DNA of 64,000 nucleotides from Candidatus Kerfeldbacteria bacterium RIFCSPLOWO2_02_FULL_42_19. GTDB lineage: Bacteria; Patescibacteriota; Patescibacteriia; HO2-48-17. The first letter of the stretch is position 1, and each line of letters begins with the position of its first letter. Below, in pieces: positions 4,567 through 63,037 of this stretch. The DNA is taken from positions 128,080-192,079 of the forward strand of contig MHKF01000012.1 of NCBI GenBank assembly GCA_001818315.1, read 5' to 3'. The notes beneath the pieces are model-generated. The model did not search any database. It worked only from the letters and a program-made list of their open reading frames with translations, and was not told the origin of the DNA. Both the position numbers and the translations under genes were made by a program.

Positions 4567-4746
4567 CTGCATTTAAGATAAGGCAGGGGAAGGATATATT
4601 TTTTCAAATGTGTTGTGATAAGTACTTCATCAAATAGAGAGGAAAGTGTGCACTATAGTAACTCTTTCAAATACAGATCGTTCATGTTTGGATATCACAG
4701 CTTTTGAAAAATTTATCCTTCCCCTGCCTTATCTTAAAGTTGCAGT
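4567..4746. repeat. Family-A element, copy 1: a ~110-nt conserved core flanked by a locus-specific perfect ~30-bp inverted repeat
   Basis: Arms ctgcatttaagataaggcaggggaaggata / tatccttcccctgccttatcttaaagttgcag; the core is shared with 24925-25090 (ttttttcaaatgYgttgtgat…atagagaggaaagtgtg…ttcatgtttggatatcacagcWtttgaaaaa). Confidence 0.6.
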
Positions 4747-18040: not shown

Positions 18041-18116
18041 TCCGCGGTAGCTCAGTTGGTAGAGCAGTTGGCTGTTAACCAATTGGTCGTGGGTTCGAGT
18101 CCCACCCGCGGAGCCA
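18041..18116 (+). tRNA. tRNA-Asn (anticodon GUU)
   Basis: 7-bp acceptor stem tccgcgg/ccgcgga, D-arm TAGCTCAGTTGGTAGAGC, anticodon loop cuGUUaa, T-arm GGTTCGAGTCC, encoded CCA; 76 nt. Confidence 0.85.
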
Positions 18117-24924: not shown

Positions 24925-25090
24925 AGAGTGAAGAACGGCGAGCATATGTTTTTTCAAATGCGTTGTGATTACCAACTTTATGAGATAGAGAGGAAAGTGT
25001 GTACGAGAGCAACTTTTTCAAACGAATATCATTCATGTTTGGATATCACAGCATTTGAAAAAACATATGCTCGCCGTTCTTCACTATTCA
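24925..25090. repeat. Family-A element, copy 2 (conserved core in a different, locus-specific perfect ~28-bp stem)
   Basis: Arms agtgaagaacggcgagcatatgtttttt / aaaaaacatatgctcgccgttcttcact; the core aligns with 4567-4746. Confidence 0.6.
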
Positions 25091-27310: not shown

Positions 27311-28060
27311 TCAAAAGAATTTTTCCTCAATCATTCGGAGCCACCGAAGCCATTTTTCTGGATCGGCGTCGAACTCCGGGCGTTTGAGGGTCAGGACGTT
27401 TCGTGCGAGCACAGCGTCGAAAGTAGTCCCGTCGAAGCTTCCCAGAATGACGCCGATGAACAGGCCGGAGTTGATGTGCACGTCTTGTTGCATGCACGAT
27501 GACACCTGCGTGCTGTGATCTGGTTCTTCGTGAAAGAGATGTTCGAGCTTTGGTGCAGCGTTGATGAGTTTTTGTTTGTATTGTTGTGTGAACGTTTCTT
27601 TCGCTGCATACTTCGCGTTTGTGTGTACAAAGAGCCGGAGGAACCTTCCGAGCATTCGCCACAGAAAGATCAATGTCGTGAGGCTTTCGTGTCCCAAGAT
27701 CTGTATGATTGCGTTGAGTGCGCAGGGGTCAATCACGAGGGAATTTTCGTATCCCTGGTGGAGGAGATGAGGCTGCATGAAGACGAGGGGCTTTATGAAG
27801 TCTGGTTCGCGGTGCTGTGGGATTGTCGACATCAGGACTCGCGGTTTGAGCTGTAGATCATGGGGGAGTTGCTCGGCGAAGCCTAGGAAGTTAAGCTTGA
27901 GGAATTCAGCGGGGTTATACTCTTCTGCTTTGGCGAATCCTGGCTCGTCATCCATGTATCCGAAGATACCAAGTCTCTCTTTTTGTGTATCCAGTTTTTG
28001 CATCTTTTTTCCTTTCTTTGATTTTTTGTTCCTCGGGTTTTCCGAAAATATTTGCGGCAT
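27311..28060 (-). CDS. uncharacterised protein, paralog A of 30039-30737 (no recognised family)
   Basis: 249 aa; shares LWRMLGRFLRLFV and the C-terminal DVHINSGLF.GV.LGSF.G.TF…LAR.VLT.KRPEF…WLRMIE.KFF with paralog B (~45-70% identity by block). Confidence 0.55.
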   Translation of the reverse strand: MPQIFSENPRNKKSKKGKKMQKLDTQKERLGIFGYMDDEPGFAKAEEYNPAEFLKLNFLGFAEQLPHDLQLKPRVLMSTIPQHREPDFIKPLVFMQPHLLHQGYENSLVIDPCALNAIIQILGHESLTTLIFLWRMLGRFLRLFVHTNAKYAAKETFTQQYKQKLINAAPKLEHLFHEEPDHSTQVSSCMQQDVHINSGLFIGVILGSFDGTTFDAVLARNVLTLKRPEFDADPEKWLRWLRMIEEKFF

Positions 28061-28109
28061 TATTGACGAATGGCGCTTTTGAGAGCAAAGTTCTCATAAG
28101 CTTCGATCT

Positions 28110-35679: not shown

Positions 35680-36810
35680 ATGCTCGGAGCTTTTCCCTCA
35701 CAAATGATTGAAAAACTTTTTACTGCCGGTCATATTCATGGAGCTGCTTTGCAGAATATACAACCTTCTTCGCTTGATCTTACACTTAGCGAGGAACTTT
35801 ATCGCGTGGAAGGCGTTTTTTTGCCACAGCGCGGAGAGCACGTACGTGATTTGATTGACATGTTTCACGCGCAGTCTGTAACTTTTGCTGAACCGCTTCA
35901 ATGTCACGGAGTGTATCTGTGTCGTCTGAATGAGCGTTTAGTGCTACCCGAGAGCGTCTATGCGTATGCGAATAACAAGTCGTCTACCGGTAGGATTAAT
36001 TTGCAGGTGCGTCTGCTTTGCGATGGCGTTCCGAAGTTTGATCAGATTCCCAAAAGCTACTGTGGCGAGTTGTGGATTCTTGTTGCGCCGCATTCATTTA
36101 GTATTGCTTTGCAACCAGGACAGTCGCTCAATCAGATGCGTTTTTTCAACGCGGATACGCGGCTTTCGGAAGAAGAACATCGCGCGCTCTATAGTTTTCA
36201 ACCGCTTTTGTATCAATTTGATGGAAAGTCATTCCCTGCAGCCGAAGTACTGTTTGATAAAGGTGGCGGTATCACGATGACGATTGATTTTGATCAGGAT
36301 ATTATTGGGTATGTTGCATTTCCGAATTCCGCAAAAGTTTTGGACTATGCGCGAAGGGATTATAAACCCGAAGATTTTTTTGAGCCTATTTGTCGACTGA
36401 AAAAGAATCAGTTAGTATTGAATAGAGAGGGATTTTACATTTTTTCCACGAAGGAATACATCGCTGTGCCGCCGGAATTTTCGGTCGAGATGATTGCGTA
36501 TGATCCAACCAAAGGCGAGTTCCGTACGCACTATGCTGGATTTTTTGATCCCGGCTGGGGTTTTGGAGCGCGCGGCGAACTGAAAGGTACGCCGGCGGTA
36601 CTCGAAGTGTACCCGCACGATCATAACTTTATCTTCCGTGATGGACAGCCGATTTGCAAAATGGTCTACGAGCGACTTGCGACGTTTCCAGATCGTATCT
36701 ACGGCGTAGGCGACCTCGGTTCACATTATCAGCATCAGCGCGGCCCGTGCCTTTCCAAACATTTTGTGCAGCACGCAAAAGTAGCTGCGAGTGTTTTGAG
36801 TCAAATATAA
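35680..36810 (+). CDS. dCTP deaminase-like protein, long tandem-domain form (dUTPase superfamily)
   Basis: N-terminal IQPSSLDLTLSEELYRV (cf. Dcd VQPASVDLRLG), SSTGRINLQV (GRSS.ARLG-like), ALQPGQSLNQMRFF; the second half carries THYAGFFDPGW (a DPGW motif). Confidence 0.5.
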   Translation: MLGAFPSQMIEKLFTAGHIHGAALQNIQPSSLDLTLSEELYRVEGVFLPQRGEHVRDLIDMFHAQSVTFAEPLQCHGVYLCRLNERLVLPESVYAYANNKSSTGRINLQVRLLCDGVPKFDQIPKSYCGELWILVAPHSFSIALQPGQSLNQMRFFNADTRLSEEEHRALYSFQPLLYQFDGKSFPAAEVLFDKGGGITMTIDFDQDIIGYVAFPNSAKVLDYARRDYKPEDFFEPICRLKKNQLVLNREGFYIFSTKEYIAVPPEFSVEMIAYDPTKGEFRTHYAGFFDPGWGFGARGELKGTPAVLEVYPHDHNFIFRDGQPICKMVYERLATFPDRIYGVGDLGSHYQHQRGPCLSKHFVQHAKVAASVLSQI

Positions 36811-36975
36811 TTTTGTTGCAGTGAGAGGGTATATTGCTGGGCGACTCTTTTTGCGAGCGGGTACGGTTCGAGCGAAATGCAATGGAGCGAGAGAGCGAAC
36901 AAAAAGTGTCAGTGAGTCCACACGCTGGGTGGACGAACGGCACAGCAATATACCCTCTCACTGCAACAAAATTTT
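36809..36975. repeat. ~165-bp element: a perfect 31-bp inverted repeat flanking a ~100-nt core, between the dcd-like and thyA-like genes
   Basis: aattttgttgcagtgagagggtatattgctg … cagcaatataccctctcactgcaacaaaatttt; the core contains gagagagcgaacaaaaagtgtcagtga, which resembles the Family-A core block agagaggaaagtgtg. Confidence 0.5.
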
Positions 36976-36987
36976 TTACCAAACTTC

Positions 36988-38517
36988 ATGACCCACACTA
37001 TGCCTGCAAAAGATTTTCCAAAAGAATGGCCGATCTATTTTAAAGACAATATTATCGTTGGAAATCTTCAGAATTCTGTTGGAATTGCCTGTCTTTGGAC
37101 GCCGAAAGTCATGTTCGCACGAAAGTTAAACGCCGCAAGTTACTGCGTTTTGAGTCAGTTGTATTCGAACGACGGCATTAATCCAATTTTGCGCAATGTT
37201 TTAGCTCGGCCGCAAATTCATACGATTGTTATTTGCGGGCAGGATAAAATTGGTTCAGCCGATGCGCTGACAAAGCTTTGCGTTAGCGGTATTGATGAGA
37301 AATACAAGATAATCGGTAAACTCGAGGCAAAGGTGGATAAGGAGATTCCGCGCGAGGCCGTGGAACTTTTTCGTAGGAACGTAAAGATTGTGGATATGCG
37401 TGGCGTGCTCGATGCGGCGAAAATTCAACAAGCCGTGCGCGAACACGCAGCGCCGAACACACCGTGGGCAGCGCCGCAACTTTTTCCTGAACCAGAACTT
37501 TCAACCGAACGTTTTCCGATCGATCCTCACGGAGTCAAGATTCGTGAGAAGTATGTCGCGCAAGCGTGGCTTCGGGTGCTGTATTATATTATGCGCTTCG
37601 GCGCGGAAAAACCTACGCATCACGGCACGAATCAAAAAGAACTCCTGAATATGATGACGATTATCACTGACGAAGATCCCGAAAATATCCATTGGGCAGA
37701 TTGGTTCAATTTTACACGCGAGCACTTTGAAGGGTATAAGCTACAAGTCATGAGTGCGGAATCGATTCCTAGTCTGGAGTATACGTACGGCATGCGATTG
37801 CGGAATCACGATGGCGTGAATCAGATTGAGACGCTTATTGCAAAAATTCGAGAGGAATATTTTTCCCGACGCGCTGTTGCTTTTACGTGGAATGTCGCTC
37901 AGGATAACGTGAGTCAGCATCCGCCGTGCCTTGATCTCGTACAGGTGATTGTGCAGGACGATACGCTTCACATGACGTGTTACTTTCGTTCGAATGACAT
38001 GTTCCGCGCATGGCCGGAAAATGCGTTGGCCTTGCGCACGATGCACAAGGAGATTGCCGACGGAGTGGAATTGCCGATGGGCGAAATGTGTATTATTTCT
38101 CACAGCGCTCATGTGTACGAAGAAAACTATAATGAAGTGAAGGAGCTTTTGAAAAATTATTATGCGAAAGAGGTTGTTTTTTGCCGTTTTGATCCGCGTG
38201 GCAATTTTACGATTCACGTGAATCGCGAAAAGCGTCAGTTAGAAATGATCATGATGACGCCGAAAGGTGAGAAGATTGTCAAATACGAAGCACCCGATGC
38301 GTTCCGTATGATGCAAAAATTGGTCGCTGATGAAGCAGTTAGCGAGATTGGGCACGCGTTAGATTTGGGTGAGGAGCTCATGGAAGCAGAAATTTGTTTG
38401 CGTACAGGCCTTGAATATCGGCAGGATATCACAGGACGTACGCAATTTTTAAAGGAACTTGATCAGCTTTTGGCAGCACGCAGGCAAGAGGAACGAATCT
38501 TCGCGCGTTCAAGATGA
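36988..38517 (+). CDS. thymidylate synthase (ThyA-fold) homolog with a ~170-aa N-terminal extension
   Basis: RRAVAFTWNVAQD…HPPCLDLVQVIVQD…CYFRSNDMFRAWPENALALRTMHKEIA…ISHSAHVYEENYNE parallels the ThyA blocks R..WNP.D…PPCH…QF.V…YQRS.D…PFNIASYALL…GD.HIY.NH, including the catalytic Cys. Confidence 0.55.
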   Translation: MTHTMPAKDFPKEWPIYFKDNIIVGNLQNSVGIACLWTPKVMFARKLNAASYCVLSQLYSNDGINPILRNVLARPQIHTIVICGQDKIGSADALTKLCVSGIDEKYKIIGKLEAKVDKEIPREAVELFRRNVKIVDMRGVLDAAKIQQAVREHAAPNTPWAAPQLFPEPELSTERFPIDPHGVKIREKYVAQAWLRVLYYIMRFGAEKPTHHGTNQKELLNMMTIITDEDPENIHWADWFNFTREHFEGYKLQVMSAESIPSLEYTYGMRLRNHDGVNQIETLIAKIREEYFSRRAVAFTWNVAQDNVSQHPPCLDLVQVIVQDDTLHMTCYFRSNDMFRAWPENALALRTMHKEIADGVELPMGEMCIISHSAHVYEENYNEVKELLKNYYAKEVVFCRFDPRGNFTIHVNREKRQLEMIMMTPKGEKIVKYEAPDAFRMMQKLVADEAVSEIGHALDLGEELMEAEICLRTGLEYRQDITGRTQFLKELDQLLAARRQEERIFARSR

Positions 38518-42066: not shown

Positions 42067-43692
42067 TTATGGTGAAACCAGATAAAATGTTTCGTTGACA
42101 CCATGAAATTGATCAGTCAATGTGATATCCGGTCGATAGTGCGGTTCGCTGACATAACTTGTTTCAAATGGGCTCCCCGTTAAAATGACTTTTGGATTCT
42201 GCTGCAGGAAGCTGTGAATGTCAATCACTGTATTCCACTTGGAGAATTGTTTAGTGAAGATTTCATATACAAAATAATTTGGATACAGTTGGGTTAACTC
42301 CCAATTATATGATTGTGACACACTATTATTGCCAAAATTTAAAGCAAATTCAAGTGATGATGATCGAAAATAATGAAAAACGGTATAATCAGCATAGCGT
42401 TCTTGTAATTCTTGTTGAAGAGAGAGTACTTCTTGCTTGGTATTCTTTTCTACCGTATTTAATTTTTTCACTTCTGAAAAGGTAAGTGCCATCGATTGAC
42501 CAGCGAACACAAAAAAAAGAATAGTCAGACATATTGTTGCAACCGTTTTTGGTTCATGAAAATGACGCAATTGGAGAAGAGCACAACAAATCATCATAGC
42601 TGTAAGTGGTACGAACGGCAAATAATAATATTGGATCATATGCTTGGCAATAAAACCAAAGGCGAGAATTTGGGTGATCGCTGCAGCTGCACCCACACGA
42701 AATGTCATTGTTTGGAGATACTGTCGCCGTTGTGGCAAAACAATGATGCTCACGATACTGACGAGTAAAAAAAGAATGATGACTTCGAAAATATGGGGAA
42801 AACCATCAAGTAATATTTTGAGATTACTCCAATAGACCGACCAATCTAGAATTTGTGCAGTTCCGGCACCATGAATACCACTGTGTTGAAAAATCTTTAT
42901 TACCCAATCGAATAACTCTGCATAGCGCTGTCGAATAGGTAAGGTAAAAAAAAAGAAAAAACTAACGGCGCTTATCAAATAGAGTAATTTTAAACGGATT
43001 GTACGGATGATAATGAGAGGAAGGACAATCGTTGGCAAAAAATTCATTTTGGTGGCAATACCTAAACCAATAATCATTGCAGCTATGAGCGCATACACTA
43101 TGCCATGGCGCCAAGTTTGTTGCTTTGATTTGAGCATCATCACTAGCCACAGCATGAGCAATAATACTACTGTTAACAACATAGCTTCGGGTGCTACTTT
43201 CACTAAGCTATTCATTGGTATATAGCTAGAAAAAAATGGCGCGGTTTGTAGCAGCCATCCCAACCAAACGTTTTTTAATTTGTAATAAGCCGTAAAGCCG
43301 ATCGTACTTAATAGTAATGCATTGATGATGAGGAATACATAGCTCACTGTTTGTAAATATAATTCCGGATTTGTAAGCACGTCGGTTTCAAGTGTTGGCC
43401 AATCATAAACAAAATTGTTGCGTAGAAAGTGAACACACCGCATCACAATGGCAATAAAAATTTGTACCGGCGTACCAGGATGATCAATATGGCCAATGGG
43501 TAAATCTTCAATCACATTGAGTGCATTCATGAGATACGCATAATCTGGATCATAATTTGAACCTGACCAATATGGACCGCGCGAATTTTTAAGATACATC
43601 CCCAAGACAACAAAGAGTCCGGGAATGACGATAAAGCCTATCCAACGAGCTACAATTTTCCATTTGAAATGACGTGTGCCAATGATATTCAT
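42067..43692 (-). CDS. polytopic membrane protein, GT-C-like (ArnT/PMT-type) putative glycosyltransferase, paralog 1
   Basis: ~12 TM segments; conserved N-terminal loop YWSGSNYDPDYAYLMNALNVIEDLPIGHIDHPGTPVQ; tandem with its paralog. Confidence 0.45.
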   Translation of the reverse strand: MNIIGTRHFKWKIVARWIGFIVIPGLFVVLGMYLKNSRGPYWSGSNYDPDYAYLMNALNVIEDLPIGHIDHPGTPVQIFIAIVMRCVHFLRNNFVYDWPTLETDVLTNPELYLQTVSYVFLIINALLLSTIGFTAYYKLKNVWLGWLLQTAPFFSSYIPMNSLVKVAPEAMLLTVVLLLMLWLVMMLKSKQQTWRHGIVYALIAAMIIGLGIATKMNFLPTIVLPLIIIRTIRLKLLYLISAVSFFFFFTLPIRQRYAELFDWVIKIFQHSGIHGAGTAQILDWSVYWSNLKILLDGFPHIFEVIILFLLVSIVSIIVLPQRRQYLQTMTFRVGAAAAITQILAFGFIAKHMIQYYYLPFVPLTAMMICCALLQLRHFHEPKTVATICLTILFFVFAGQSMALTFSEVKKLNTVEKNTKQEVLSLQQELQERYADYTVFHYFRSSSLEFALNFGNNSVSQSYNWELTQLYPNYFVYEIFTKQFSKWNTVIDIHSFLQQNPKVILTGSPFETSYVSEPHYRPDITLTDQFHGVNETFYLVSP

Positions 43693-43700
43693 AGTCTGTG

Positions 43701-45077
43701 TTATCGAGGATAAAGTTCTTGTAACTCAACTGTATATGAGCCGTACGCAAAGTTATTACCGGCCTGCAAAGCCGAGTACTGGCCGGCACTTGTTTCATGA
43801 GTCGCAAGAAATTCCTTTTGCGTTTGTCGTTCAATGTCAATAGCTTGCGAGGTTTGACGAGAGCCTGAGATAATCGACTGTACAAATATAAAAATAAACA
43901 AAACTGCCAGGTAAACTCCGCTGGCATTTCGATGTTGAGATTTATTGCGCAATTGCATGAGAATACAACAAACTATAATGCCAGTCAGTGGAATAAATGG
44001 TATAAAATAATGATAACGCATATGTTTTGCAATCATCACCAGACTCAATAATTGACTAACGATGGCAGCTGCACCCACACGAAATGTCATTGTTTGGAGA
44101 TACTGCCGCCGTTGTGGCAAAACAATGATGCTCACGATACTGACGAGTAAAAAAAGAATGATGACTTCGAAAATACGGGGAAAACCATCGATTAATCCTT
44201 GCAAGTTGTTCCAATAGAGAGGCCAATCAATCACACCAACTGTACCGCTCCCGTGAATACCTGTATGTTGAAAAATACTTCCAAACCAATGAAATAATTT
44301 ATTGTATTGTGATCGAATCGGCCATGTCCACAAGAAAAAAAATCCAATCGTACTAGCGAAATACAATAATTTTAAGCGGATGGTTTGAATAATGAATAAC
44401 GGCACAATAAGCATTGGCAAAAAATTGACTTTGGTTGCAATACCCAAACCAACGATACTAGCAGCCACCAAACTAGAGTCGATCGCTTGGCGCCGATTGA
44501 ATTTGGTTTTCCCGAGCATTACGACTAACCAACAAATCAATAGCAAGACAATGGTCAATAATAATCCTTCCGGCGCCACTTTCGTGAAACTGTACATTGG
44601 TATGAATGAGCTCAGGAATGGCGTCGACTGCAAAATAATGGCAAAATAATAGTTTTTCAGTATCCCATATGTTATTATTCCAACGGTCAATAATAATACT
44701 GAATTGATGATCAGTAATGTATAACTGATGGCCTGTAAATACAATTCTGGATGTATTAGAACATCTGTTTCGAGCGTTTGTAAATCATATTGGGCACCAT
44801 TGCGTATAAGATGAGACGTTTTAATCACGAGTGCACTGAATAATTGTACCGGCGTACCAGGATGATCAATATGGCCAATGGGTAAATCTTCAATCACATT
44901 GAGTGCATTCATGAGATACGCATAATCTGGATCATAATTTGAACCTGACCAATATGGACCGCGCACATTTTTTATAAATATCCCTGTCATCAATAATGCG
45001 ACCGGAAGGATCAGCAAGCCGCACCCCAGTAACCAGGATTTCCAACTCAAGTGTCGCAACCAATTTACCAGCTGCAT
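43701..45077 (-). CDS. GT-C-like polytopic membrane protein, paralog 2
   Basis: Same N-terminal loop block; the internal 35-aa stretch EVIILFLLVSIVSIIVLPQRRQYLQTMTFRVGAAA is identical to paralog 1. Confidence 0.45.
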   Translation of the reverse strand: MQLVNWLRHLSWKSWLLGCGLLILPVALLMTGIFIKNVRGPYWSGSNYDPDYAYLMNALNVIEDLPIGHIDHPGTPVQLFSALVIKTSHLIRNGAQYDLQTLETDVLIHPELYLQAISYTLLIINSVLLLTVGIITYGILKNYYFAIILQSTPFLSSFIPMYSFTKVAPEGLLLTIVLLLICWLVVMLGKTKFNRRQAIDSSLVAASIVGLGIATKVNFLPMLIVPLFIIQTIRLKLLYFASTIGFFFLWTWPIRSQYNKLFHWFGSIFQHTGIHGSGTVGVIDWPLYWNNLQGLIDGFPRIFEVIILFLLVSIVSIIVLPQRRQYLQTMTFRVGAAAIVSQLLSLVMIAKHMRYHYFIPFIPLTGIIVCCILMQLRNKSQHRNASGVYLAVLFIFIFVQSIISGSRQTSQAIDIERQTQKEFLATHETSAGQYSALQAGNNFAYGSYTVELQELYPR

Positions 45078-45253: not shown

Positions 45254-46084
45254 TTAAAGATGATATGAAACTCCAATCCCAGCACCGGCATACCAATGAT
45301 GGAGGGGCTGCTCTTGAAAGAATAAAAAAGCTCGTTTCGTACGCTGACTAAATTCCCACAACTTTGATGAACAGTGAACATTGTCTCCGAGAATGATTGC
45401 TCGTGGTGATAATTTCGCTTGCACAGTCTCGTACTCGCGCAGTTCATATTCCTGAGAATGATCGCTGTCATTAATAAAAAGATCGATTGTCTGAGATAAT
45501 GTGTTCAGTGACGCGATTGAATCGCCATAGAGTATTTTGGCATATTCAGAGTATGGTAGCTGCAATAAATATCCAGCCACCGGGTCGATATCAGTCGTAT
45601 ATAAGTAGCCAGGTGCACCATCATGAGCATTACGTTTTAAAGCAGCCGCAATAATGCATGAACCAAGCCCCTTATTGGTTCCAGTTTCAACGACGATCTT
45701 CGGTTTCATCGCTCGAACAAATGCATACCAGCCAATGCGACGACTGTATTTTGCTGTTGAATCAGCAATATAGCGTTCGGGAGCCTGCTGTGTGAAACGA
45801 ACGATATGATCGTGTAATGCCTGATCATGGACAATTTCATCAATATATCGTTGTACGTCGCCTACAGGTTGATGGGTGACAGTAGCAACAAAGGCAATCA
45901 AATATTGCCTATTCAGGGCAGTGAGATCATATGTAAAATTATCAATCTCACGCGAAGTGAATGTCCAATGGAGTAATTGTTTGAATGTTGGTATGACATA
46001 ATGAGCACCAAACCAAAAACGGTATGGTATAAGCAGGATGCGACCTGCCGCCGTTGTTTTTAAAAAATGTTTCAACTTCTCCAT
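45254..46084 (-). CDS. class I SAM-dependent methyltransferase (TylF/CmcI-like O-methyltransferase family)
   Basis: IVVETGTNKGLGS SAM-binding motif and LFINDSDHS…E, at a length of ~276 aa. Confidence 0.5.
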   Translation of the reverse strand: MEKLKHFLKTTAAGRILLIPYRFWFGAHYVIPTFKQLLHWTFTSREIDNFTYDLTALNRQYLIAFVATVTHQPVGDVQRYIDEIVHDQALHDHIVRFTQQAPERYIADSTAKYSRRIGWYAFVRAMKPKIVVETGTNKGLGSCIIAAALKRNAHDGAPGYLYTTDIDPVAGYLLQLPYSEYAKILYGDSIASLNTLSQTIDLFINDSDHSQEYELREYETVQAKLSPRAIILGDNVHCSSKLWEFSQRTKRAFLFFQEQPLHHWYAGAGIGVSYHL

Positions 46085-46360: not shown

Positions 46361-47318
46361 TTAACGTACCCAAGCGTTGTATTCTTTGAGTCGCCCCTGC
46401 TTCTCATAAAGAAGGCGTGGATTCAGGATTTCTCGGGGAATTTGTTTGAGAAGCATGGCGTTCTCGGGTGCGTTCACGTTAGCGATCTCGTACCCGAAGT
46501 CAGGATCGCGTTGCCATCGAATTTTTCCTTCAATCATAACTTCTAACATGGCCGAGGAGTGAGGAATTTTTATTTTGAGCGCACGCCCTGCTGAGACGTC
46601 TTGTGCATCACCACCGATAAACCCTGTGTTCATCATCCACATCTCAACTCCTTTCATGCTCCTGGCAATCTCACTGAAACGTTCGGCCTGAAGACGATGA
46701 ATTCTGGGGAAGAAGGGCTGTGTAAATGGGGATCGAATTCTGCCGTGTTCTTTCCCTGCAACCGAGGTTTTAGTGGTCTCTCCGAGCATAAAATACGCTG
46801 TAGCCTGTGCGGGCGAAGTGAAGCGGAGGATGCCTGGCGTTGCAGCGTCGCTCCCTGCATCACGATTCAAAATCCCCATAAGCTTGACTTGCGGGATATT
46901 TCGAAAATTTGCAGCATTTTTTATTGCGCTCATTGGGATGATCGAACGACTGTTCTGAGTCCAGATCACAAAATCCCATCCATCTTTTGAGATGCCGCGT
47001 TCATCAACGATTTCTTTAAATGAAACTTTTGACAAAATATAGTTGTCCACATTTTCAGCCACGGCGCCGTTGCGATTCGATCAGCTTCTGCGCCTTTTCT
47101 GGAGGAATTGTATTCGAGGAGTAGCAGTCCTTCTCCGCATCAGGAGCAATAATGTAGGTGTATTGATCTATCCTCGCTTTGTTCCGCGAGATCTTGTTCA
47201 AACTCCCGTAAGCAGTTCGGATCGTTACCGATGTGTATTCCAATGCGAGTTCCTGGAGTTCTTTCTGATTTGGATTTTCAATATATCTTACTTTGTAAGG
47301 TTTCAAATTGTGTGACAT
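46361..47318 (-). pseudogene. pckA: ATP-dependent PEP carboxykinase (pckA) remnant: N-terminal 87 aa and C-terminal 233 aa in different frames; the central kinase region is missing
   Basis: N-terminal ORF 47055-47318 (…YGSLNKISRNKARIDQYTYIIAP…) and C-terminal ORF 46361-47062 (…EMWMMNTGFIGG…LLYEKQG…) match the two PckA ends; no GLSGTGKTT P-loop region; 8-nt overlap with a frame change. Confidence 0.55.
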
Positions 47319-47399: not shown

Positions 47400-48233
47400 A
47401 TGGGTTCTGAATCAATAAAATACGAGATTACACCTCCAAAGGGACTTATAAGGTTCAACCTTCCGGAGATTTGGAGATTTAAGGACCTGTTTTATATTTT
47501 GGTCTGGCGAGATATTAAGGTTCGGTATAAGCAGACGGTTTTAGGTATTCTGTGGGCTCTGTTTCAGCCATTTTTGACGATGGTGATTTTTACTATCTTC
47601 TTTAGTGTTTTTGCAAAAGTTCCTTCCGATAACGCCCCTTATCCCATTTTTGTTTATTCTGGTTTGCTCTTTTGGAACTATTATTCGACCGCTCTAACGA
47701 ATGCGAGTAATTCACTTATCAATAATGAGGGGATTGTGCAAAAAGTCTATTTTCCGCGTCTCATTTTACCGATCTCAACTGTGTTGACACCGATAGCAGA
47801 CTTTATATTTGCCTTTTTTATTTTATTGGGATTAATGGTTTATTATCATTTTACCCCCGGAATTTTAGGCCTTCTGCTTGTACCTCTCTTGCTTCTCATT
47901 TCTATTTTCAGCGCTCTTGGGCTTGGATTATTACTCTCTGCTGTGAATACTAAATATCGAGATGTTCGCTACATCCTTCCTTTCTTTATGCAAATTTTAC
48001 TTTTTATTACGCCTGTCATTTATCCCGTCTCTATTATTCCAGAACAATTTCGCTGGTTGGCTTTCTTTAATCCAATGACCGGCGTGATCACTCTTGCTCG
48101 CAATGTTATTATCGGGGTAGGGGAAGTAAATTTCGGACACATTGGTGTTTCCGTATTCGTGAGTGTCGTTTTACTCTTCATTGGCCTCGCTTACTTTAGA
48201 AAAACAGAACGCTTCTTCGCCGACGTATTATAA
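47400..48233 (+). CDS. ABC-2 type polysaccharide/O-antigen export permease (Wzm/TagG-like)
   Basis: RDIKVRYKQTVLGILWALFQP signature, six TM segments. Confidence 0.7.
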   Translation: MGSESIKYEITPPKGLIRFNLPEIWRFKDLFYILVWRDIKVRYKQTVLGILWALFQPFLTMVIFTIFFSVFAKVPSDNAPYPIFVYSGLLFWNYYSTALTNASNSLINNEGIVQKVYFPRLILPISTVLTPIADFIFAFFILLGLMVYYHFTPGILGLLLVPLLLLISIFSALGLGLLLSAVNTKYRDVRYILPFFMQILLFITPVIYPVSIIPEQFRWLAFFNPMTGVITLARNVIIGVGEVNFGHIGVSVFVSVVLLFIGLAYFRKTERFFADVL

Positions 48234-48247
48234 GGTATTATGATACT

Positions 48248-49474
48248 ATGCAATCAATTATTCAAGTTGAAAAACTGAGCAAAAAATTTCATATTGGCCA
48301 AAAAGAGCACTACTATTCTTTGCGTGACTCCTTAGTGGATGCCATCACTTTTAGGCAGAAAAAAAAATATGATATCTTCTGGGCATTGAAAGATATTAAT
48401 TTTGAAGTTCAACCCGGCGAAGCACTGGGAATTATAGGCCGCAATGGAGCTGGTAAAAGCACTCTCTTGAAAATTCTTTCTCAGATCACTCCGCCGACCA
48501 CTGGGCGAATCAAAATTGGAGGACATGTAGCTTCTCTCTTAGAGGTCGGTACTGGTTTTCACCCAGAACTCACAGGCCATGAAAATATTTACTTAAACGG
48601 TGCAATTTTAGGTATGTCCCGTAAAGAAATAAAAAGAAAGTTCGATGAGATTGTGACTTTTGCTGAAATTGAAAAATTTCTCAATACGCCAGTGAAACGT
48701 TATTCTTCTGGAATGTATGTAAGACTCGCTTTCGCTGTGGCTGCCCATTTGGAACCGGAGATATTAGTAATCGACGAGGTTTTAGCAGTTGGCGATGTTC
48801 AGTTCCAAAGAAAATGCTTGAATAAAATGAATGAAATTTCTCAAAAAGATGACCGCACGGTTCTTTTTGTCAGCCACAATACAGGAGCTATCCAGACTCT
48901 ATGTGAACATTGCATCTTGCTTGATCAAGGAAAAATAATAATGCAAGGAGACACTCCGAGAGTCATTGAGAAGTATTTGAGAACATTTAATGACACAATA
49001 CTGATTGATCGTAAAGACAGAATCGGTAAAGGTGAAATCCGACTTACAGATGTCTCTTTCGAAAATTCTGCAGGAGAAGAAGTCGCATCTTTCATCTCAG
49101 AAAAAGACGCTATACTTAAGATAAGGTACGAATCGGTGAACAATTCAGACACAGATTTGAGAGATGTTGATATTGGCATTGGAATAGATGATAGTATTGG
49201 TCAGAGAATTGCTGGTCTATCTACAGTTGGTAATAAAAATTTTCCTGACCGCATTAAAAAGAGTGGTTTGTTTATATGTACCATCAAAACATTACCTTTG
49301 AATACGGGACGCTTTTATCTGACCTTGATTTTACGCCACAAGGGCGAGATTATGGATTGGATTCAGCAAGCTGCCTTTTTTGATGTTGAGAACCTGCAAA
49401 ATTTCAACTATGGCTCATCGCTCTCAAGATCAGACGGCCCTTTTTTAATTAATCATTTATGGACAGTACAATGA
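48248..49474 (+). CDS. polysaccharide ABC exporter ATP-binding protein (Wzt/TagH-like) with an extra C-terminal domain
   Basis: Walker A GIIGRNGAGKSTLL, YSSGMYVRLAFA signature, ILVIDEVLAVGD; ~150-aa C-terminal extension. Confidence 0.75.
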   Translation: MQSIIQVEKLSKKFHIGQKEHYYSLRDSLVDAITFRQKKKYDIFWALKDINFEVQPGEALGIIGRNGAGKSTLLKILSQITPPTTGRIKIGGHVASLLEVGTGFHPELTGHENIYLNGAILGMSRKEIKRKFDEIVTFAEIEKFLNTPVKRYSSGMYVRLAFAVAAHLEPEILVIDEVLAVGDVQFQRKCLNKMNEISQKDDRTVLFVSHNTGAIQTLCEHCILLDQGKIIMQGDTPRVIEKYLRTFNDTILIDRKDRIGKGEIRLTDVSFENSAGEEVASFISEKDAILKIRYESVNNSDTDLRDVDIGIGIDDSIGQRIAGLSTVGNKNFPDRIKKSGLFICTIKTLPLNTGRFYLTLILRHKGEIMDWIQQAAFFDVENLQNFNYGSSLSRSDGPFLINHLWTVQ

Positions 49475-54533: not shown

Positions 54534-55627
54534 AGGTACCTTTAGTTGATTTAAAAAGACAATATGTTCAGATCCAATCTGAAATTGCAACGGCAATACA
54601 ACAGGTTATTACTGACACAGCCTTTGTCTTAGGGAAATATACGGAACAATTCGAAGTTGAGTTTGCTCGCTACTGCCAGGTTCAACATTGCGTTGGTTTA
54701 AATTCTGGCAGCGATGGTTTGTTACTCGCCTATATTGCTTGTGGCGTCAAAGCTGGTGATGAAGTGATTACTGTTGCCCATACCTTTTTCGCCACCACCG
54801 AACCCTTGGCTCATCTTGGTGCTACACCAGTCTTTGTTGATATTGATCCCACTACCTATCTTATTGATCCTGAAAAAATTGAAGCGGCTATAACTCCAAA
54901 AACTAAAGTGATTGTTCCTGTGCACCTTTATGGCCAAATGGCGGATATGACAAACATAATGGCTATCGCCAGGAAATATAACTTGAAAGTGATTGAAGAT
55001 TGTGCCCAAGCTCACGGTGCAACTCATCAAGGCCAAAAAGCCGGCACCTTCGGCGACATTGGAATCTATAGTTTTTACCCTGGAAAAAATCTTGGTGCTT
55101 ATGGCGACGCTGGTTGCATAGTTACCAACAATAGCGAATACGCTCAGTTAGTGAGAAAATTACGGGATCACGGCCGAAGCAGTAAATATGAATATGACAT
55201 TGCTGGTTATAGTTCTAGAATGGATGGTTTACAGGCAGCAATTCTCTCAACCAAATTAAAATATCTAGAGAAGTGGAATAAGGCAAGAAGAAAAGCCGCA
55301 GCTCACTACAATGAACTCTTACCTGAAGAAATTAAAAAACCAGTTGAAACGAAGAACAATCGTCATGTCTACCATCTTTATGTGATTGAGGTAGCGAATC
55401 GCAATAGAGTTCTTTCATATCTCACAGAGAATGGTGTTGAAGCTGGCATTCATTATCCTATTCCGTTGCACTTGCAACCACCCTACTCGGCATCAGTTAT
55501 GAGTCATACATCCTTACCTCGCACCGAAGCGGCTGCGAAAAATATTTTATCCCTACCTCTTTTCCCTGAGATCACCGACGAAGAACTTCAATATATCGTG
55601 CGTCAAGTTAAAACAGCAATAAAGTAA
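54530..55627 (+). CDS. DegT/DnrJ/EryC1/StrS-family PLP-dependent sugar aminotransferase
   Basis: MKVPLVDLKRQY N-terminus; full fold-type I layout for sugar aminotransferases; Lys in YSFYPGKNLGAYGD. Confidence 0.8.
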   Translation: MKVPLVDLKRQYVQIQSEIATAIQQVITDTAFVLGKYTEQFEVEFARYCQVQHCVGLNSGSDGLLLAYIACGVKAGDEVITVAHTFFATTEPLAHLGATPVFVDIDPTTYLIDPEKIEAAITPKTKVIVPVHLYGQMADMTNIMAIARKYNLKVIEDCAQAHGATHQGQKAGTFGDIGIYSFYPGKNLGAYGDAGCIVTNNSEYAQLVRKLRDHGRSSKYEYDIAGYSSRMDGLQAAILSTKLKYLEKWNKARRKAAAHYNELLPEEIKKPVETKNNRHVYHLYVIEVANRNRVLSYLTENGVEAGIHYPIPLHLQPPYSASVMSHTSLPRTEAAAKNILSLPLFPEITDEELQYIVRQVKTAIK

Positions 55628-56730
55628 TGAAAATTTTGATTCTCGATACTTATTATCCCGCATTCCTAGATGATTTTTATCATCGATATCCTACAATATC
55701 GGACGAAAAATATGAAGATCAGTTGCAAGCCTTACTGAACCAACAATTCGGCACTGCTGATTTTTACTCCAAAAATTTGCGTCTCTTAGGTCATGAAGCT
55801 AAAGATATTATTTATAATGCCGAATCATTACAAAACAAGTGGGCTCAAGAACATAATATACATTTTAAGTACAATATCACGGAAATCATTCCGATCTTGT
55901 ATCGATACCTTCAGAAAAGATGGCCGGAACGAATTTTGTTGGATCAAATTAAGAATTATCAACCGGATATTCTTTATATACAAAATGTGAGTGTTCTTTC
56001 TTCTGGTTTTCTCTATCGCATAAAGCCATCACTCAAAATGTTGGTCGGTCAAATTGCTTCGCCATTCGATTCTAAGATCGATCTCAGTGTTTATGATCTC
56101 TTGATCTCAGCAGCCCCAAACTTTGTCCAACACTTTCGTCAGCGAGGCTACGCTTCAGAACGCTTAAAAATTGGTTTTGAATCTACTATTCTTTCTCAAT
56201 TGAAGAAAAATCGAATAACTTGGAATACAATCTTTATCGGTGGTTTTACCGGTCCACATCTGAAAACTACTCGTCTTTTAGAAAAAGTTGCGGTCGAAGT
56301 TCCGATCGATTTTTGGGGCTATGACGCGTACAATTTGGACCATGACAGTCCGATACGACAACGTTTCCATGGGCCGGTTTGGGGAGTTGAAATGTATTCT
56401 GTTCTTCATAACTCTAAAATCGCAATCAATCGTCATGTAGATGAAGCCGAAAATTATGCTGGCAATATGCGAATCTACGAAGTAACTGGTACAGGCACTC
56501 TGCTCATCACTGATATGAAGGATAATTTAGGTGAGTTGTTTAAGATCGGCGAGGAAATCGAAACGTATTCTTCTCCTGAAGAGTTGATCGCAAAAATTAA
56601 GTTTTATTCTCATAATGAATCAGCACGTCAAAAAATTGCTCATGCCGGACAACAACGGACACTCAAAGACCATAATTATTATCAACGAATGAAAGAGCTC
56701 ATCCAGATTCTTAAAAGGTATACGCCATGA
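55627..56730 (+). CDS. CgeB-like glycosyltransferase (GT1-like), paralog 1
   Basis: C-terminal YEVTGTGTLLITD…GEEIETYSSPEELIAKIKFY…IAHAGQQRTLKDH matches the CgeB-family C-terminus. Confidence 0.45.
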   Translation: MKILILDTYYPAFLDDFYHRYPTISDEKYEDQLQALLNQQFGTADFYSKNLRLLGHEAKDIIYNAESLQNKWAQEHNIHFKYNITEIIPILYRYLQKRWPERILLDQIKNYQPDILYIQNVSVLSSGFLYRIKPSLKMLVGQIASPFDSKIDLSVYDLLISAAPNFVQHFRQRGYASERLKIGFESTILSQLKKNRITWNTIFIGGFTGPHLKTTRLLEKVAVEVPIDFWGYDAYNLDHDSPIRQRFHGPVWGVEMYSVLHNSKIAINRHVDEAENYAGNMRIYEVTGTGTLLITDMKDNLGELFKIGEEIETYSSPEELIAKIKFYSHNESARQKIAHAGQQRTLKDHNYYQRMKELIQILKRYTP

Positions 56731-57842
56731 AATTTCTCATCATTGATACATATTATCCCTCTTTTCTTAAAAGTTTCCGTCATAAGTATCCAGAATCATT
56801 GGGGATGTCTTATCAGGAACAACGGCAATTTTTACTTGATCAAAAATTCGGTACTTCGGATTTCTATTCTGGAAATTTCAAAAAGCTTGGGCATCAAGCT
56901 GAAGATATTATCGTGAATGATCTTTATCTTCAGTTTCGGTGGGCTCAAGAAAGAAATTTTTTTGTTTCTGAATCACGTTTTAAGGCTCGCATGCGGGTTT
57001 TACTTCGGGCTTATCATCTTCTTGGTCCACCGCGATGGATTCAAGAGATTGCTTTAGCTCAGATTCAAGAATATAAACCAGACATTATCTATATCCATAA
57101 TTTGACTATTTTTAGCCCTGATTATTTTCAAAAAATAAAAAAACAATGCCAATTCGTAGTTGGTCAAATTGCTTGTCCTCTACCGCCAAAAATATATTGG
57201 GAAAACTACGATCTGATTGTCACTTCATTTCCTCACTTTGTGCAAAGATTTCGCCAGCAAGGCATCAAGAGTGAATATTTAAAAATAGCTTTCGAACCTC
57301 ACATTCTTGACCTCGTTAGCAAACAGCCACGTATTTATAACGTTTCTTTTATTGGTAGTTATTCCTATCATCATAAGGGCGGGACGCAGATTCTGGAAGA
57401 TGTTGCACGGAAAGTGAAAGTTGATTTTTGGGGCCTGAAACAATTTTTCATGTCGCCATTCTCACCGATTGGTCGACGGTATCATGGAAGTGCATGGGGT
57501 CTCGATATGTATACTTTACTTGCTCAGAGCAGAATTGTTATTAACCGTCACATTGGCGCGGCTCAGAACTATGCTAATAACATGCGACTGTACGAATCAA
57601 CCGGAATGGGCGCTCTTTTAATTACTGACATGAAAGACAATTTGAATCATTTATTTCACATCGGCAAAGAGATTATTGCTTATTCGGATGTTGAGGATTT
57701 AGTTGATAAGATTCGTTACTATCTTGAACATGAGAAAGAACGCGCCGAGATTGCTCAGGCTGGACAACAGCGAACTCTTCAGGAGCATACGTATGAAAAC
57801 AGGATGAAGGAACTTTTAACTATTTTAGCAAAATATTTATGA
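56727..57842 (+). CDS. CgeB-like glycosyltransferase, paralog 2
   Basis: Collinear with the upstream paralog (YESTGMGALLITD…IAQAGQQRTLQEH). Confidence 0.45.
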   Translation: MKFLIIDTYYPSFLKSFRHKYPESLGMSYQEQRQFLLDQKFGTSDFYSGNFKKLGHQAEDIIVNDLYLQFRWAQERNFFVSESRFKARMRVLLRAYHLLGPPRWIQEIALAQIQEYKPDIIYIHNLTIFSPDYFQKIKKQCQFVVGQIACPLPPKIYWENYDLIVTSFPHFVQRFRQQGIKSEYLKIAFEPHILDLVSKQPRIYNVSFIGSYSYHHKGGTQILEDVARKVKVDFWGLKQFFMSPFSPIGRRYHGSAWGLDMYTLLAQSRIVINRHIGAAQNYANNMRLYESTGMGALLITDMKDNLNHLFHIGKEIIAYSDVEDLVDKIRYYLEHEKERAEIAQAGQQRTLQEHTYENRMKELLTILAKYL

Positions 57843-58507: not shown

Positions 58508-58590
58508 ATACAATATGTATATCCAAGAAAGATTCATTGTATGAAATCAGCGTATATGTTATATTCTTGCTGAGAATTGTAAAATATAAG

Positions 58591-58950
58591 ATGGCTTACA
58601 TTCTGTTAGTGCTTGCAATAGGAATGAACGTTACCGCACAACTTCTTCTCAAATATGTTGCGAAACAGATGCAATTTTTTGATGTTGCAGTGAATAAAGT
58701 TGTTCTGATAAAAACACTTCTTTTGCAACCGGCTTTTTGGATTGCATTAGTTTCGTATGGCATCAGCTTCGGGCTTTATTTAGTCGTGTTGTCAAAATTA
58801 GAATTGAGTAAAGCCTATCCGATCAGTAGTACTGCTGGCATTGTGCTTATTGTTGTTATATCCATTTTTACCTTTCATGAACCTTTGACGTTTCCCAAAA
58901 TTCTAGGCGTAGGATTAGGTTTGCTCGGTATTTTGTTATTATTTAAATAA
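58591..58950 (+). CDS. small 4-TM EamA/SMR-like transporter (ArnE/ArnF-like Und-P-sugar flippase subunit)
   Basis: 119 aa, four TM segments, directly upstream of a GT2 gene. Confidence 0.45.
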   Translation: MAYILLVLAIGMNVTAQLLLKYVAKQMQFFDVAVNKVVLIKTLLLQPAFWIALVSYGISFGLYLVVLSKLELSKAYPISSTAGIVLIVVISIFTFHEPLTFPKILGVGLGLLGILLLFK

Positions 58951-58952
58951 GC

Positions 58953-60356
58953 ATGCACTATCAGGCTATTGTTGAATTTATGAACCAACAAGCTGCTCGT
59001 CGTACGAAGTGGCGCGAGCGCAATTGGTATTATTACGAAGATCTCGTCAGTTTTTTACAATATAATGTCCCCCAAAATAGCCGAGTATTAGAAATTGGCT
59101 GTGGTGATGGCTATCTTTTACATCAGCTTCAACCCATGTATGGGGTTGGTATTGATATTGCCCCGGCCATGATTGAACAAGCTCAACAAAAATACCCTGA
59201 CTTGCATTTTTTTGTTATGGATGTTGAGCAACTGAAACTCCAAGAAACTTTCGATTATATTATTCTCTCTGATACTATTGGTTATTTTTATGATGTACAG
59301 AAGGTGTTAAATAATTTACGCAGCGTTTCTCATAGCGGGACAAGAGTGCTTATTACGTATCAAAATTTTTTGTGGTCACCGTTACTTCAACTCGTGGAAC
59401 TGCTCCATCTCAAAATGCCCTCTAAGAAATTGAATTGGCTCAATGTAGGCGATTTAGTGAATTTACTTAACTTAGAAAATTTTGAGGTTGTAAAAAGTGG
59501 TCATCGCTTACTTCTTCCATGGTATATTCCTTTCCTTTCAAAATTCATGAACAAATATTTGGCACACCTACCCTTATTGAATCAGTTGTGTTTGACGAGT
59601 TTTGTTATTGCCCGTCCTTGCATTCCAACGCAAGAATATAGTGTGAGTGTGATCATTCCAGCGCGCAATGAACGCGGTAATATTGAACAAGCTGTTCAAC
59701 GTATTCCTCACTTAGGGAAACACACAGAAATTATTTTTGTTGAAGGTCATTCCAATGATAATACTTTAACCGAAATTCAACGAGTGTGTCAGAACTATGC
59801 TGACAAACTTGACATCAAATATGCTGTACAAGACGGCAAGGGCAAAGGTGACGCGGTACGTAAAGGCTTTGCTATGGCTCACGGTGATATCTTGATGATT
59901 CTCGATGCTGATTTAACTGTTCGTCCAGAAGATTTGCCGAAATTTTATCAAGCTATCGCTTCGGGGAAAGGTGAATTTATCAATGGTTGTCGTTTAGTAT
60001 ACCCTATGGAAAAAGAGGCTATGCGTATTTTGAATATGATCGCAAATCGTTTTTTCTCTGTAACTTTTTCATGGTTATTGGGTCAGCGCATTAAAGATAC
60101 TCTCTGTGGCACGAAAGTCATTTGTAAAAAAGCCTATGAGCAATTAGCAAGTAATCGAGCATTTTTTGGTGATTTCGATCCATTTGGTGATTTTGATTTG
60201 TTATTCGGTGCAGCGAAGTTAAATTTAAAAATCGTAGAGTTACCCATACGTTACCAGGCACGAGTATACGGTTCAACGAATATTTCACGTTTCCGACACG
60301 GGTTTATTCTTTTGAAAATGGTCTTGTTTGCGATGAATAAAATTAAATTTATTTAA
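58953..60356 (+). CDS. fusion protein: N-terminal class I SAM methyltransferase plus C-terminal GT2 polyprenyl-phosphate glycosyltransferase (DPM1/ArnC/GtrB-like)
   Basis: VLEIGCGDGYLLHQL…ILSDTIGYF (MTase); VSVIIPARNERGNIEQAV…ILDADLT (GT2 DxD). Confidence 0.65.
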   Translation: MHYQAIVEFMNQQAARRTKWRERNWYYYEDLVSFLQYNVPQNSRVLEIGCGDGYLLHQLQPMYGVGIDIAPAMIEQAQQKYPDLHFFVMDVEQLKLQETFDYIILSDTIGYFYDVQKVLNNLRSVSHSGTRVLITYQNFLWSPLLQLVELLHLKMPSKKLNWLNVGDLVNLLNLENFEVVKSGHRLLLPWYIPFLSKFMNKYLAHLPLLNQLCLTSFVIARPCIPTQEYSVSVIIPARNERGNIEQAVQRIPHLGKHTEIIFVEGHSNDNTLTEIQRVCQNYADKLDIKYAVQDGKGKGDAVRKGFAMAHGDILMILDADLTVRPEDLPKFYQAIASGKGEFINGCRLVYPMEKEAMRILNMIANRFFSVTFSWLLGQRIKDTLCGTKVICKKAYEQLASNRAFFGDFDPFGDFDLLFGAAKLNLKIVELPIRYQARVYGSTNISRFRHGFILLKMVLFAMNKIKFI

Positions 60357-62665: not shown

Positions 62666-63037
62666 TCATTCATTGACAATGACACTCATGAGGAGTACGA
62701 CTGCTGCAGTGATTTTTGATTGAGTCAAAGCTCTACGAAGCCAGTACCACAAGGTTTGCCAAAGGCGACGACATTCACGGGTAATTGTCTTTATAAAGGC
62801 AATCCACAGTAGTCCAAAGATGCTATAGACAACTGTCGCTTTAAACTGTCCTATCAATCCCAGTAATAATCCAATATTTCCTAAGATACCCAGACCAATA
62901 AGATACGCTACACTCACAATGACTGCGTAGTGGTGCTCAAAGCGCAACCGACGCAATAACGACATTCCCATGCCGATAGCGAGGCTACTGAAAAAGAATG
63001 CTAGTAAAGTATTAGAAACGATGGAAATGATACTCAT
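62666..63037 (-). pseudogene. truncated N-terminal fragment (123 aa) of a GT-C-like membrane-protein paralog
   Basis: LRRLRFEHHYAVIVSVAYLIGLGILGNIGLLLGLIGQF parallels LRKLSWQANDAVSISIAYLLGFAVLAYSLVLLGLIKLF at the N-terminus of the 60413 gene; a stop follows after 123 aa. Confidence 0.4.

Follow-up and report, generated by a model that had tools for sequence, protein, structure and literature searches.

In a 64-kb stretch of genomic DNA (hereafter the window) from an uncultured groundwater member of Candidatus Kerfeldbacteria (Candidate Phyla Radiation (CPR)/Patescibacteria), obtained from Rifle aquifer samples, we found two adjacent genes, g1 and g2, which encode related membrane proteins of the GT-C glycosyltransferase fold and share two short segments of almost identical DNA, tract A and tract B. 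Very probably both tracts were made by interlocus gene conversion between old tandem duplicates of a GT-C gene. We base this reading on a synonymous divergence (dS) that is near zero within the tracts and saturated outside of them, on the sharp tract edges and on the conflicting trees obtained from tract and non-tract columns.

The two genes are arranged head to tail on the minus strand, with g2 located upstream of g1 and a gap of 8 nt between them (Table 1). A first-pass annotation of this DNA had described two adjacent minus-strand genes for proteins of 541 and 458 amino acids with about 12 transmembrane (TM) helices each; the open reading frames (ORFs) exist as claimed, and AlphaFold models together with a hydropathy scan gave about 11–13 membrane helices. 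By exact-sequence look-up both genes were found in several Candidatus Kerfeldbacteria metagenome-assembled genomes (MAGs), g1 being identical to OGY79347.1 and three further public entries and g2 to OGY79346.1 and two further ones. In UniRef both proteins carry the name 'Glycosyltransferase RgtA/B/C/D-like domain-containing protein'. The two proteins share 55% identity and align without gaps over ~430 residues, and at the DNA level the register between the copies is likewise ungapped with a constant offset of 1382 nt. Alignments show that g2 lacks the counterparts of g1 residues ~435–449 and of the C-terminal domain (473–541), i.e. g2 is not a full paralog, as its C-terminal alpha/beta domain is missing. 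When the window was compared with itself, the longest repeat by far was that of g1 and g2 (1048 nt), with all remaining repeats ranging from 34 to 122 nt.

Within this pair tract B is identical at 121 of 121 positions and tract A at 123 of 125, compared with a nucleotide identity of 0.56 and a third-codon-position identity of 0.3–0.5 outside the tracts. The two near-identical segments amid high divergence that had been noticed in the first-pass annotation are thus real, and the approximate coordinates given there were accurate to within about 10 nt. Tract B encodes the peptide RGPYWSGSNYDPDYAYLMNALNVIEDLPIGHIDHPGTPVQ and tract A the peptide DGFPHIFEVIILFLLVSIVSIIVLPQRRQYLQTMTFRVGAAA. The two mismatches in tract A are found at 42724 (CGA/CGG, synonymous) and 42794 (CAT His/CGT Arg), the longest exact run being 69 nt. 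All tract edges are sharp, with mismatches or copy-specific bases returning 1–2 nt past every edge. Tract B extends from the end of TM1 across the first extracytoplasmic loop, where D48, Y53 and H71-P72-G73-T74 are located, to the start of TM2 and contains the most conserved motif of the protein family; tract A runs from a strongly hydrophobic TM helix through a basic loop (PQRRQY) to the beginning of the helix that follows, in a region that is variable across the family.

Chance does not produce runs of this length. When matches and mismatches were shuffled among the alignment columns (n = 5000), the longest run averaged 14.6 with a maximum of 31, against 121 observed; calculated analytically, a run of 121 nt has a probability of 1e-21 to 3e-28. 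Nei-Gojobori dS was 0 in tract B, 0.07 in tract A and 2.5, that is saturated, outside the tracts, where the nonsynonymous divergence (dN) was 0.49. The resulting omega of about 0.2 or less indicates that both copies are under purifying selection and have been maintained at the protein level. Even if the two proteins had to agree within the tracts, the same codons would be picked independently with a probability of 10^-14.4 in tract B and 10^-18.5 in tract A.

A single close ortholog of g1 is known, P0001, a protein with 67% identity, whose gene sits on a 3.8-kb contig without a g2-like gene immediately upstream. In the tree of non-tract columns, calculated with four outgroups, g1 is sister to P0001 with g2 outside (300/300 bootstraps), which places the duplication before the g1/P0001 speciation and the homogenisation of the tracts after it. 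In the tree of tract columns g1 is sister to g2, again in 300/300 bootstraps. Compared with P0001, 18% of nucleotides differ in tract B and 37% in tract A, the latter corresponding to 63% identity at the nucleotide and 64% at the amino acid level. As tract A is also variable in the family, protein conservation does not explain this tract. Its likeness to the ortholog (63% of nucleotides) is about at the level seen between g2 and the ortholog, to which we attach little weight with regard to the donor, the region being a variable one. The GTDB representative genomes gave identities of 36% or less. Among the Joint Genome Institute (JGI) metagenome contigs a family scan yielded full-length relatives at 34% identity or less and a few short N-terminal fragments with 47–62% identity over 37–69 residues (L085, L086, L091), and an exact search of these contigs with tract B gave no match.

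The mosaic is specific to the g1/g2 pair, because neither other tandem pairs of the family nor the other tandem pair of the window carry such tracts. Tandem paralogs are frequent in the family and were found at about 12 of 45 genomic loci (tandem or clustered in L006, L007, L009, L011, L013, L015, L016, L030, L033, L041, L042 and L046). None of 12 other tandem pairs of the family contains near-identical tracts, including two pairs with 52–56% protein identity (matches of 100% turned out to be overlapping ORF coordinates), and in the whole-window self-comparison the tandem pair of GT1-like genes (Table 1) showed no identity tract at the nucleotide level. The hosts of the tandem or clustered copies belong to Omnitrophota, Aminicenantes, Ignavibacteria and Bacteroidota, with up to 3 copies per locus, and in several Ignavibacteria MAGs family members are spread over at least three contigs.

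The series of events would have started with a tandem duplication of the GT-C gene before the split from P0001. Non-reciprocal homologous recombination between the direct copies would then have copied two segments of ~120 bp from one gene onto the other. The repeats, their significance, the incongruent trees, the reproducibility across assemblies, the fold and the conserved gene neighbourhood are observations, whereas the mechanism of recombination, any direction of transfer and the role as enzymes are inferred. The latest conversion events would be recent. Gene conversion between old duplicates, as already proposed in the first-pass annotation, is well supported by the collapse of dS, the sharp boundaries and the tree conflict. 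Its description as recent holds for the last events, but the tracts may be long-lived islands of concerted evolution instead of two one-off events. Probably they are islands that never left concerted evolution, with a recent latest event, rather than the outcome of two de novo events, because the background around tract A offers little homology to start recombination. An island of this kind could persist since identity itself would promote further conversion.

Several points weigh against gene conversion between two glycosyltransferase genes. The background identity of ~60% at tract A provides little homology for initiation, so that the extra assumption of a persistent island is needed. One public contig, MHKC01000011.1 (GCA_001818755.1, L051), has its start within the g2 copy of tract B (window position 44936), and one public protein, P0002 (source SRC, SRR3989338_470221), is a chimera consisting of g1 residues 1–37, tract B and the body of g2; either the repeats confuse assemblers or recombinant molecules exist. 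The linkage across the repeats comes from assemblies only, and every recovered copy stems from one clonal population (100% identical). Neither a second strain nor a g2 ortholog is known, hence the state before conversion and the direction of transfer are not visible. As to the enzymes, g1 and g2 match no glycosyltransferase model in Pfam or NCBIfam, and the genes presumed to synthesise the sugar donor are located 13.5 kb from the pair on the opposite strand.

Among the alternatives, it is unlikely, yet the least so, that the islands are kept by selection, either (a) as handles for switchable surface glycans in an episymbiotic CPR cell or (b) in a heterodimer resembling Pmt1/Pmt2. In the first version a variable core would be swapped or deleted between the full-length GT-C enzyme and its domain-less partner, and in the second the g1-g2 pair would depend on a catalytic loop and an interface helix that are the same in both proteins. 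The P0002 chimera and the repeated occurrence of tandem pairs are compatible with islands kept by selection without demonstrating them.

We consider it quite improbable that the tracts are programmed or selected recombination handles, serving to swap or delete the ends of the genes or the 218 codons enclosed by the tracts and thereby to vary the surface glycan in the manner of pilE/pilS. In Neisseria, pilE/pilS bring about antigenic variation via mini-cassettes. The g1/g2 pair resembles this system in that a truncated copy lies beside a full-length copy and conserved tracts flank a variable segment, in the same register in both copies; the chimera joining the g1 N-terminus, tract B and g2 in a public protein catalogue and the recurrence of tandem paralogs in the family also fit. 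In contrast to pilE/pilS, however, no variants were found in any of the 18 contigs, all retrieved with the exact g1 protein, and the four contigs that span the region are identical in DNA. Neither protein cluster contains a chimera of the deletion type, and the single chimera stems from protein-level assembly, where false joins across an identical stretch of 41 amino acids are expected. Moreover, g2 possesses a separate start codon and evolves under purifying selection as a protein. Dedicated recombination machinery was not observed, no recombinase or invertase was noticed among the genes annotated around the pair, and tracts of this kind are missing from the other tandem pairs of the family.

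Selection without any recombination, acting on a protein segment that is unable to change or on an equally constrained nucleotide element within the tracts, such as an RNA, a promoter or a binding site, is very unlikely. It would agree with tract B coding for the most conserved motif in the alignment of 61 family sequences. Against it, all synonymous sites are identical despite free codon choice, with the probabilities of about 10^-14 and 10^-18 given above, the ortholog P0001 differs in both tracts, and tract A varies among family members. We rejected an RNA or regulatory element hidden in the tracts, as Rfam gave no family match in either of them (its sole match in the window is the tRNA at position 18041) and sites resembling promoters or terminators are no more frequent than by chance.

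An assembly artefact, in which reads of two diverged genes or strains were collapsed, mixed into a consensus or joined as chimeras, is most unlikely as judged from the assemblies. The contig break inside tract B of g2, owing to which OGY81873.1 is a partial protein, and the P0002 chimera joined at tract B would both be in line with it. We retrieved 18 public contigs carrying g1, all of them via the exact g1 protein. Four of these span the whole region and match the window at 100% identity over 3401 nt. They originate from several samples and assembly programs, namely the original ANAN16 scaffold, GCA_001818735.1 and, as re-assemblies of other samples, two MEGAHIT k141 contigs. The prefix k141 in the contig names we take to denote a final assembly k of 141. 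This k exceeds both repeats (121 nt exact in tract B, 69 nt for the longest exact run in tract A) and copy-specific bases directly abut the edges, so single k-mers must have linked each tract with both of its own flanks. In all five places listed, g1 lies immediately downstream of g2, which in L051 is truncated by the contig start, and both genes are intact ORFs with confident predicted folds. Collapse or chimerism, a concern raised together with the original observation, is thus made unlikely by four independent identical contigs, two of them built with a k larger than the repeats. P0002 differs by one extra P-to-T change and has no contig on record. Proteins of the SRC catalogue (Plass) presumably result from protein-level assembly, in which mis-joins are to be expected across 41 identical residues, and P0002 is a probable mis-assembly of this kind. 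A real recombinant was set aside because of the SRC origin and the missing contig.

Equally unlikely is a recent duplication followed by very fast, selection-driven divergence outside the tracts. Glycan-modifying enzymes are, as a matter of general knowledge, often under diversifying selection, but the saturated dS of 2.5 and the omega of about 0.2 point to purifying rather than diversifying selection, and the position of g2 outside g1/P0001 with full bootstrap support makes the duplication older than the speciation. A template/variable repeat pair of a diversity-generating retroelement is the least plausible of all. Such elements are common in CPR bacteria, their repeats are similar in length to the tracts of 121–125 nt, and at both mismatches of tract A the coding strand has A in g1 and G in g2. 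However, the repeats here are coding, homologous and in-frame in paralogs, tract B is free of mismatches, a mere two A/G transitions are nothing unusual, and no ORF in the window carries the reverse transcriptase motif G[NL]L[TP]SQ of these elements (the single YxDD match lies in a 260-aa ORF at 27314–28093, minus strand).

Neither g1, g2 nor the profile of their family gave a significant match to Pfam, NCBIfam or PDB sequences; in Pfam there was no hit for g1 or g2 at E≤0.01 and only DUF4179 at E≤1. Relatives were collected by a word-indexed search (n = 61) and by a profile search over 1.84 billion representatives, the latter yielding 1,939 clusters (50% identity) at E≤1e-30 and 2,709 at E≤1e-10. 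The family is found in Patescibacteria, Aminicenantes, Omnitrophota, Dependentiae and many Ignavibacteria/Bacteroidota. Weak Pfam matches were obtained for few of the 61 relatives (PMT 3/61, PMT_2 1/61, GT87 4/61), and membership of g1 and g2 in PMT or PMT_2, as implied by the UniRef name, was not found. Some relatives carry a C-terminal CBM_4_9 carbohydrate-binding module.

AlphaFold predicted both structures with high confidence, with a predicted local distance difference test score (pLDDT) of 92.9 for g1 and 92.4 for g2 and a predicted template modelling score (pTM) of 0.93 for each. In the g1 model the membrane helices are followed by the C-terminal alpha/beta domain (aa ~433–541); the g2 model shows a complete membrane module, whose last long helix is followed by just two short ones. 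GT-C enzymes were the only proteins among the top matches of the structure comparison, which identifies a multi-helix GT-C membrane fold; g1 and g2 would be enzymes of an uncharacterised but recognisable kind. The first-pass annotation had suggested surface glycan or protein O-mannosyl-type transferases; the O-mannosyl type is among the activities that a GT-C protein could have, but it is not specifically supported. The family signature is DPDYAYL...HxDHPGTP, within the tract B motif GPYW..N.DPDYAYL.N.LN...H.DHPGTP.Q. Y53, H71, P72 and G73 are invariant in the 61 sequences, D48, T74, K215 and the G272/G275/G277 cluster are present in ≥90% of them, and in a 35-sequence alignment D48 and E169 are invariant. 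All family-conserved residues are retained in g2. D48, part of NYDPDY, follows TM1 (helix 11–38) and lies in the first extracytoplasmic loop. In solved GT-C structures the catalytic Asp is located after TM1 (PMC11127046), and by analogy D48 may have a catalytic role.

The pair is located at the edge of a low-GC (37–41%) glycan cluster containing Wzm, Wzt with Wzt_C, several methyltransferases, sugar-nucleotide-modifying enzymes and GT1-like transferases (Table 1). The region had been called AT-rich, and the G+C content of 38–40% is indeed lower than the 44–47% found upstream, but this is not a property of the pair alone, as it extends over the whole glycan cluster at ~42–64 kb. The Methyltransf_24 gene upstream of g2 may be co-transcribed with g2-g1; it was not found beside family members elsewhere.

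Table 1. Position of g1, g2, their identity tracts and further genes of the glycan cluster in the window.
Feature	Position	Strand	Remarks
g1	42067-43692	-	541 aa ORF; full-length member of an uncharacterised family of GT-C-fold membrane proteins; OGY79347.1
g2	43701-45077	-	458 aa ORF; upstream paralog; OGY79346.1
Tract A, g1 copy	42683-42807	-	123/125 identical to g2 copy; g1 codons 296-337
Tract A, g2 copy	44065-44189	-	125 nt, 2 mismatches to g1 copy
Tract B, g1 copy	43462-43582	-	121/121 identical to g2 copy; g1 codons 37-77
Tract B, g2 copy	44844-44964	-	121 nt, 0 mismatches to g1 copy
Methyltransf_24 gene upstream of g2	45254-46084	-	Pfam E 3e-17
Wzm (ABC-2 permease) and Wzt (ATPase, Wzt_C glycan-binding domain)	47400-49474	+	Pfam; ABC-transporter-dependent glycan export
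Control tandem pair (Glyco_trans_1_2, GT1-like)	55627-56730, 56727-57842	+	48% protein identity; stop and start codons overlap
Small 4-TM SMR/ArnE/ArnF-like protein	58537-58950 (likely start 58591)	+	Candidate flippase for polyprenyl-phosphate sugar
Methyltransferase-GT2 fusion	58953-60356	+	467 aa; Pfam GT2 and methyltransferase domains; candidate polyprenyl-phosphate sugar synthase

We lean towards the view that g1, and probably g2, decorate the glycan exported by Wzm/Wzt from a polyprenyl-phosphate sugar donor. Both are predicted to act on the external side of the membrane, where they would transfer the sugar from this donor, which would be made by the methyltransferase-GT2 fusion and flipped by the ArnE/F-like small protein. 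The two paralogs may differ in acceptor or linkage, and the C-terminal domain that is missing from g2 probably binds the acceptor. This putative enzymatic role is suggested by the context of a linked GT2 and ArnE/F-like protein, and the gene context as a whole appears to point to a Gtr/Arn-like three-component glycan-modification system.

For the small multidrug resistance (SMR)-like protein we obtained a Pfam match to Multi_Drug_Res of 41.4 bits (cut-off 23.7) and NCBIfam matches to ArnF (best, 3.3e-10) and ArnE, both below the cut-off. SMR/EamA-like homologs of ~110–120 aa are found directly upstream of a family member only in the closest relatives (L001, L003, L004, L052). The GT2 part of the fusion matched AglJ (2.6e-30), dolichyl-phosphate hexose transferase, PgfS and ArnC in NCBIfam, all below cut-off. 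In 19 of 47 loci a homolog of the fusion with 50–66% identity lies within ≤10 kb of a family member, mostly adjacent and upstream; in one locus the homolog is 75% identical over a fragment of 48 aa. We further noted that the fusion is better conserved across phyla (50–66%) than the accompanying GT-C protein (25–36%). In three relatives the genes for the fusion and the SMR-like protein were mapped (L003 8154–9924, L004 2405–4125, L052 6231–7945), with the latter between fusion and GT-C. It is unusual for an S-adenosylmethionine (SAM) methyltransferase to be fused to a putative polyprenyl-phosphate sugar synthase, which hints that the lipid-linked donor may be methylated.

A polytopic membrane protein of 646 aa is encoded on the plus strand at 60413–62353. 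It has no Pfam or NCBIfam match, carries the loop motif DEISYHLPEA and probably represents a second GT-C-like enzyme; homologs with 28–37% identity, one of them with a weak DUF8201 match, adjoin family members in L001, L003 and L052. A 123-aa ORF on the opposite strand (62666–63037, minus) is 31% identical to the N-terminus of the 646-aa protein and resembles a gene fragment. Between the GT-C pair and the Wzm/Wzt operon, ATP-dependent phosphoenolpyruvate (PEP) carboxykinase is present as two short ORFs of 87 and 233 aa (46361–47318, minus), with a Pfam match restricted to positions 298–456 of the 465 in the profile and the same call in other assemblies; these ORFs are apparently the remnant of a pseudogene. 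Outside the cluster, a 509-aa fusion at 36988–38517 (plus) combines the Pfam domains MtrA, Thymidylat_synt and the pterin-binding DUF4346 in an unusual thymidylate-synthase-like architecture. Just upstream of this gene is a 34-nt inverted repeat (36809–36842 and 36940–36973) with 97% complementarity and arms ~100 nt apart, and a 122-nt direct repeat with 83% identity is found at 4591–4711 and 24941–25062, 20 kb apart.

Gene conversion as such is a well-known and ordinary process, of which g1/g2 is a clear case in a little-studied lineage. A full-text literature search for gene conversion together with 'Candidate Phyla Radiation' gave no paper on the topic, nor did a search for the run SRR3989338 bring up anything relevant; the pair provides a statistically unambiguous example of interlocus conversion in CPR/Patescibacteria, for which homologous-recombination dynamics are little documented. 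It also indicates that identity islands of 120 bp can last within otherwise saturated tandem paralogs and calls for some practical caution, as these repeats break one public assembly and yield a chimeric catalogue protein. The family itself may be the more useful result: ~2,000–2,700 clusters with a GT-C fold and no Pfam model are tied across phyla to a methyltransferase-GT2 fusion, and together with this fusion, and with the ArnE/F-like protein in close relatives, they constitute a candidate new three-component system.

The tufA/tufB genes are an example of gene conversion between paralogs. Further bacterial examples that have been reported are RF1/RF2 (PMC4530459) and the duplicate pair of PE_PGRS genes (PMC1762029), and mosaic divergence has been described for tandem paralogues (bioRxiv 10.1101/2025.10.29.685298). 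With such cases of paralog conversion and concerted evolution g1/g2 shares short tracts of near-identity in diverged paralogs, tract trees that conflict with the flank trees and direct repeats within one replicon. In contrast to the known cases, the host is an uncultured CPR bacterium, the genes encode surface-glycan enzymes of which one is truncated, and only two small islands are left in otherwise saturated copies. Compared with the GT-C enzymes ArnT (GT83, PDB 5F15), Pmt1/2/4 (GT39), ALG12/ALG9 (GT22), AftB and PimE (GT87), sequence identity is 7–12%, and unlike these the g1/g2 family is marked by a signature and a C-terminal alpha/beta domain peculiar to it. Three-component extracytoplasmic glycosylation is represented by GtrB/GtrA/Gtr*, ArnC/ArnEF/ArnT and the GT136 pentofuranose system (PMC11127046). 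The layout around the g1/g2 pair, which lies beside a Wzm/Wzt ABC-transporter glycan cluster, resembles that of these systems, with a GT-C protein linked to a GT2 resembling polyprenyl-phosphate-sugar synthases and to a small SMR/ArnE/F-like protein, whereas the GT2 is here fused to an N-terminal SAM methyltransferase domain and both partners are found 13.5 kb away.

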